Shown in pieces: positions 8,802 to 9,405 of a stretch of DNA of 16,403 nucleotides; within the stretch, counting starts at the first letter, position 1, and every line of letters starts with the position of its first letter. Made by a program: the position numbers and the translations under genes. The notes below the pieces were generated by a model. That model worked only from the letters and a program-made list of their open reading frames with translations. It was not told the origin of the DNA and made no database searches. The DNA comes from Escherichia coli (lineage in GTDB: Bacteria; Pseudomonadota; Gammaproteobacteria; Enterobacterales; Enterobacteriaceae), in assembly GCF_048403405.1 (NCBI RefSeq), contig NZ_CP183130.1. One strand, written 5' to 3'.

Positions 8802-9405
8802 ATGGAAAAAAATCAGGAAGAAAGGAAAATCCCCGTCATTGTAGTGAAAAAACGTCGTACCTTTTCGTTACCTTCCTTATCCGAAAAAACAGATATTATC
8901 GAATCTGCATTTACTGAACAGGCAGCAGAATCAGCCCCCGTCGGAATAAATTCATCTGCCGTCGAAAACACATATCCCCGAAGCACCAGCCAGGAAGAAG
9001 AAAAAGAAAAAACGCCGTTTCCCACGTCCCTCCCACTGGACCAGAGAGTATACTCACGAGTGCGTGGAAAAAATAAAGATCCTGTTTCCTCATCTTCGTG
9101 CTGAAGGTGGTGGATTTATTCCCCTGAAAATTGGCATAAACAATGATATTTCAGCATTTCTGGCAGAACACCCGGAGACAGAACTGACCATGGACGAATG
9201 GCTCTGTGCAGTGTCCTGCATCACCTCACGCCGTGTATATCTGCAGCGGACAGCTGTCGCCGGCGTCCCACGTTATGGTCTGGATGGTCACCCCAAAGGG
9301 CAGGTCTCAGAATCTGAAGCACAGAGTGCCGGTCGCAGACTGGTGACATTAGAACAAAAGTTGCTCAGGATGCAGGCACAGCAGGAGAATATTTCTGGGC
9401 AATAA
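8802..9405 (+). pseudogene. FinO/ProQ-family RNA chaperone gene, apparently frameshifted in an A-run (or an indel error)
   Basis: Frame-0 ORF 8802..9104 (GAGG RBS; N-terminus RKIPVIVVKKRRT resembles the basic FinO N-terminus). Frame-1 ORF is open from 8950 to 9405 and contains FPHLRAEGGGFIPLKIGINNDISAFLAEHPE ... GLDGHPKG, matching the ProQ/FinO domain (ProQ: FPHCF...RPLKIGI...DLDGNPCG). The frames overlap across A5/A6 runs at 9001-9012. Confidence 0.65.

Follow-up and report, generated by a model that had tools for sequence, protein, structure and literature searches.

Positions 8802 to 9405 (+ strand) of the window, the 16,403-nt stretch of Escherichia coli DNA analyzed here, carry two overlapping open reading frames that by sequence comparison belong to one gene, fopA (formerly yafB), on a conjugative plasmid of IncI1 type. 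The FinO-domain RNA chaperone gene is frameshifted by a single additional A at 8965-8968 (+), a run that is A4 in the window and A3 in the relatives to which it was aligned, and this extra base is most probably a sequencing or assembly error in the source record. fopA itself is already known and characterized; what the window adds is a trivial single-base disruption of it.

The fopA gene and its surroundings

The first reading frame (8802-9104, +) begins with an ATG that has a Shine-Dalgarno-like GAGG (8793-8796, +, as read from the sequence) 5 nt upstream. It encodes a product of 100 residues, composed of FopA residues 1 to 55, including the basic sequence VVKKRR, followed by 45 out-of-frame residues and a stop. 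The second frame, which follows a stop at 8947-8949 and is open from 8950 to 9405 (+), contains FopA residues 56 to 200, with the second basic stretch and the FinO domain. Its first possible start is a GTG at 9064, and the product from this codon (9064-9405, 113 residues) would consist of the FinO domain only; no convincing ribosome-binding site is seen in the sequence upstream of this GTG. When an intact relative is used as a tblastn query, residues 1 to 55 align in the first frame and residues from about 55 to 200 in the second, with an identity of ~100%. Because the two halves match an intact relative this closely, the overlap of the two frames is not a chance event, and together they make up one FinO-domain gene. 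No intact single ORF for FopA is present in the window, as the additional nucleotide at 8965-8968 splits the frame. The exact 100-residue product of the first frame is absent from about 15 billion catalogued proteins. The first-pass annotation had reported overlapping frames across 8950-9104, a well-initiated ORF at 8802, and one plasmid FinO/ProQ-domain gene of ~200 residues split by a frameshift, and the ORF listing, the tblastn alignment, and the repaired product described below bear out all three statements.

The assignment to fopA rests on alignment to plasmid pEK204, on the Pfam match, and on matches to other plasmids. Removal of one A from 8965-8968 yields a protein of 200 residues that is 100% identical to the annotated ProQ/FINO protein of pEK204. 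The full-length identity of this repaired product to the FopA encoded by the ST4/74 plasmid TY474p2 (pCol1B9 type) is 94%, a figure that applies to the repaired reading only, since as written residues 1-55 and 56-200 lie in two frames. Residues 84 to 186 match PF04352 (ProQ/FINO; E 2.2e-11, model positions 4-102 of 109), and the best sequence match to a solved structure is ProQ (5nb9, E 9e-6). FopA is described as having two basic stretches in its N-terminal region and, in its FinO domain, Tyr146 and Arg157, two residues whose importance is stated in the same work (PMC7491321). The repaired product has both stretches, VVKKRR (residues 13-19) and RKKKKKKRR (residues 64-72), although in the unrepaired window the second is not in the frame of the start codon. 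Tyr146 and Arg157 are also kept, and Tyr146 is invariant in the alignment. In the collection of about 15 billion proteins, at least 1000 contigs are listed for the intact 200-residue product.

The 801 nt around fopA match 1464-1466 plasmid records, the majority from conjugative plasmids of Escherichia, Salmonella, and Shigella, in which the gene is annotated as a single 'ProQ/FINO family protein' and in some cases as yafB. Plasmids that match the window are typed as IncI1/B/O or IncI-gamma/K1. In pEK204 (NC_013120, IncI1/B/O), fopA is one 603-nt ORF (604 nt in the window vs 603 nt in relatives) that is flanked by yagA and a hypothetical gene of 169 codons and lies about 1.6 kb from repA. The YafB protein of pCol1B9 was renamed FopA, and its gene is located between yafA and yagA (Gerovac et al. 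2020, RNA 26:1448; PMC7491321). The window has the same order: yagA (7105-8417, -), a divergent upstream neighbor that is broken by three private indels as judged by tblastn with relatives; fopA; and a yafA-like downstream gene (9461-9970, +), whose 169-residue product is intact and 100% identical to that of a relative. Farther on is the intact gene for the replication initiator RepZ/RepA (11043-12071, -), the product of which is 100% identical to RepA of the AR_0067 plasmid. The first-pass annotation named the right protein family, a plasmid FinO-domain protein. The protein is not an uncharacterized member of it: fopA/yafB has been studied experimentally (PMC7491321).

Several other features of this segment were recorded. 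A leader pseudoknot region, PK-repZ (Rfam RF01087; 188.9 bits, E 8e-44), at 12084-12232 (-) corresponds to the Inc/repZ control region on which FopA acts. A search for promoters and terminators in 8400-10100 yielded no more hits than shuffled sequence. At 8434-8438, between yagA and fopA, pEK204-type relatives carry an ISEcp1-blaCTX-M insertion, and the site is uninterrupted in the window; the alignment blocks that flank it overlap by 5 nt, fitting a 5-bp target-site duplication.

FopA has been shown to bind the antisense RNA Inc and to speed up formation of the Inc-repZ duplex (PMC7491321). Inc is its main ligand and is complementary to the repZ leader pseudoknot region (PMC7491321, PMC9977716), and the net effect, according to a review, is repression of RepZ and of plasmid copy number (PMC9977716). 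An intact FopA encoded at this locus would thus be expected to bind Inc, to speed the pairing of Inc with the repZ leader, and thereby to repress the replication initiator. The target region (RF01087) in the repZ leader is present in the window, and the binding of FopA to Inc itself comes from PMC7491321.

The site of the frameshift

Over 641 aligned nt, the window and pEK204 differ at a single position, the extra A, which gives cgAAAAc (8964-8969) in the window and cgAAAc in pEK204. The A3 form of pEK204 is also found in three relatives, one of which has an allele that is 97% identical, and in five further alleles with identities down to 88%. The additional A would move residues 56-200 into the +1 frame and in this way generate the two overlapping ORFs.

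Alignment to FopA relatives, which the first-pass annotation had proposed as a way to find the shift, thus identifies the exact site. This site is 30 nt upstream of the A-run to which the break had been assigned, and is still inside the interval reported. The A-rich run, aagaagaaaaagaaaaaacg, is at 8995-9014 (+), one position away from the 8994-9013 originally given, and it encodes RKKKKKKRR in the correct frame. A comparison of this run in related plasmids had been suggested as well; it is base-for-base identical in pEK204 and other close intact relatives, and a shift at this position was therefore rejected. Across alleles the run varies by substitutions and by one in-frame 6-nt deletion, and in no other way.

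The A4 form was searched for elsewhere. A 65-nt probe found it in 0 of 159 PLSDB records that carry the segment and in 0 of 200 complete E. coli genomes. An exact 33-mer gave no match in genome_contigs (GTDB representatives), where the A3 positive control matched 2, and the A4 33-mer likewise gave none in metagenome_contigs.

Private indels and the origin of the extra A

The extra A is one of 11 small indel events that are private to the window, which has 5 private substitutions in segments otherwise nearly identical to relatives. These relatives, ~99.9% identical otherwise, lack the indels, most of which are single-base insertions outside homopolymers. They comprise +T at 114; +A at 7231 and +C at 8295, both in yagA; a 2-nt loss at 8418 (CCCCGGGG to CCCGGG), which also breaks yagA; +A at 8965 in fopA; +G at 12502; a 1-nt loss at 12867 (C6 to C5); +T at 13435; +G at 15967; +8 nt at 16279-16286; and +G at 16345. 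Another +G, at 11041, is found in neither of the two relatives aligned there; its segment is more divergent, and it was left out of the count. Among plasmids, the best matches to 12400-16403 all span 3992 or 3993 nt vs 4004 nt in the window, and none is at 100% identity. Five genes are broken by the private indels: a ParR-like stability gene, yagA (at three sites), fopA, a NusG-family gene, and a flotillin-family gene. The remaining residues of all five match relatives at or near 100%.

Among themselves, related plasmids differ by 224 substitutions and 24 gap openings, or about 9 substitutions per indel, and the ratio of 5:11 in the window differs from that of 224:24 with a Fisher p of 1.3e-7. 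As judged from these alignments, the excess of private indels fits sequencing or assembly error and not natural divergence, and the whole window looks error-laden. Because private indels exceed substitutions, unlike the ratio between related plasmids, such an error is the best explanation for the frameshift in fopA, and it is from this excess that we infer the artefactual nature of the extra A. Some observations do not sit easily with an artefact. The private indels are mostly single-base insertions outside homopolymers, and frameshifted copies of fopA are present in other public records, at least one of which (L019) is otherwise identical to pEK204 over 2.7 kb.

Two further properties of the backbone concern its history and its repeats. 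The backbone is mosaic at 10195-12327: the first 10.2 kb or so of the window are nearly identical to pEK204-type plasmids, whereas the RepA protein of the window is 100% identical to the AR_0067 plasmid allele vs 98.5% to the pEK204 type. This switch of allele in the RepA region suggests, from the alignments, recombination between IncI1 lineages. In addition, perfect 8-nt tandem repeats flank a gene pair composed of parA and a 100-codon gene, with 4.2 copies of TTGTTATC upstream (5512-5545) and 6.8 copies of TATCTTGT downstream (6604-6657). Plasmid pWP3-S18-ESBL-09_1 has two more units (16 nt) in the upstream TTGTTATC array than the window does. These repeats may be partition-site repeats.

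The alternative that survives best is a genuine inactivating frameshift, which would leave a 100-residue fragment with 55 authentic residues and no FinO domain, so that Inc-repZ pairing would proceed unassisted. Single-base fopA frameshifts at various positions in other public records speak for it, as does L019, in which a single G deletion is the only difference from pEK204 over 2.7 kb; from this contig, occasional real fopA frameshifts may exist. IncI-type antisense control of copy number can work without a chaperone in vitro, and for this reason fopA is probably dispensable for replication. However, no other copy of the A4 variant was found in more than 350 close relatives or in the two contig collections. 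It is also accompanied by about ten other private indels, four further broken genes, and just 5 substitutions, a ratio unlike that of natural divergence in this backbone. A genuine mutation is therefore unlikely, and its value would be modest, as a natural fopA knockout for work on IncI1 copy-number control. It is rather doubtful that the other private indels are real along with the extra A, such that the window shows an IncI1 backbone in natural decay, from which FopA, yagA, the NusG-family transfer regulator, and the ParR-like and flotillin-family proteins have been lost. If this were true, the plasmid would be a natural fopA null with which the chaperone's share in copy-number control could be measured.

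It is highly improbable that the two frames are independent genes, one for a small basic protein and the other for a separate FinO-domain protein of 113 residues initiated at GTG 9064. Gene annotation programs have called the 113-residue product on at least 24 contigs, but in each of the ten examined fopA would be continuous were it not for a frameshift upstream or, in a single contig, a gap filled with Ns. No plausible ribosome-binding site is seen before 9064 on reading the sequence, the Pfam match begins before the GTG (residue 84 vs residue 88), and C-terminally tagged FopA has been studied as a full-length product (PMC7491321). The two-frame arrangement is not conserved, as 56 of 58 full-length plasmid homologues sampled (~97%) have a single 603-nt ORF with the same A-rich tract. 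Homologues that start near 9064 behind a separate small ORF, the arrangement that would have contradicted a split gene, are thus absent from this set. The two exceptions have single-base insertions at unrelated positions, C4 to C5 in one and an A inserted in GGACCCG in the other. An independent start at GTG 9064 was rejected on these comparative grounds and on sequence context.

A functional split, in which programmed +1 ribosomal frameshifting or transcriptional slippage within the A-rich run would connect the two frames or determine how much short product is made relative to long, has next to no chance of being correct: the A-rich tract has A5 and A6 runs inside the overlap, and a change of A6 to A5 there is frequent in other public contigs, but the 56 single-frame homologues have the same tract, a shift anywhere other than 8965-8968 garbles conserved residues 56-72, our reading of the overlap finds no known motif for the +1 shift that is needed, and the A6-to-A5 contigs also contain further 1-nt deletions, mostly in A or T runs of neighboring genes, which is a signature of sequencing error. 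Programmed +1 frameshifting was accordingly rejected on comparative grounds and on sequence context. Of the options first offered for the split, an indel error is the one favored here, and slippage-prone sequence finds no support as a source of functional slippage or recoding.

The other frameshifted copies can be described further. The ten contigs examined among the at least 24 others with the 113-residue product comprise five with A6 to A5, four with single-base deletions elsewhere, and the one with the N-filled gap. The A6-to-A5 change (L011, L014, L016, L017, and L020, at position 1444 in each, equivalent to window 9007-9012) is found in two allelic backgrounds, and the sequencing runs with this change include SRR28063679, SRR13219834, ERR4561164, ERR12814827, and SRR21029693. 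All five contigs have further 1-nt deletions, which in L016, L017, and L020 fall within A or T runs of neighboring genes; L020 has 0 mismatches and 3 homopolymer deletions. Because the same contigs carry these further deletions, some of them in A or T runs, the recurrent A6-to-A5 change is probably homopolymer sequencing error and not biological slippage. Finally, an 8.2-kb contig with the IncI1 fopA segment (L009; JAIJJM010000080.1, 4060-4091) is binned in a 'Collinsella sp.' MAG, an assignment that very likely reflects contamination of the bin by an enterobacterial plasmid.

An error in the source record remains the preferred reading of the extra A, and the frameshift thus has little biological weight: a characterized gene with a one-base frameshift in a single record is commonplace, whether as a pseudogene or as an error. 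For annotation, both ORFs should be given as one fopA gene, either frameshifted or corrected. The source sequence has suspected indel errors in at least five genes, and other findings of split genes from this window are therefore equally suspect.

FopA and other FinO-domain chaperones

The closest counterpart is FopA of pCol1B9 from Salmonella SL1344 (PMC7491321). It is encoded by the same gene, between yagA and yafA, and has 200 residues, with 94% identity to the repaired product. Both basic stretches, the PF04352 domain, Tyr146, and Arg157 are shared, and the window also has the repZ leader pseudoknot that pairs with Inc. The window allele differs in specifying the pEK204-type product and in being interrupted by the extra A at 8965-8968.

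FinO of F-like plasmids, which acts on FinP/traJ, is likewise a plasmid FinO-domain chaperone that stabilizes a cis-antisense RNA and promotes its duplex with the target mRNA. However, its N-terminal region is different, and its target is the conjugation regulator traJ and not a replication initiator. FopA constitutes a branch distinct from FinO (PMC7491321, PMC9977716). PcnR of IncI2 plasmids, a FinO-domain protein that is phylogenetically close to FopA, also represses plasmid replication (PMC9977716). Unlike FopA, it belongs to another plasmid group and is reported to bind directly to the repR leader stem-loop, independent of an antisense RNA. The chromosomal ProQ of E. coli and Salmonella shares the FinO/ProQ domain and provides the best solved-structure match (5nb9), but ProQ binds RNA globally and has an additional C-terminal domain, which is absent from FopA.
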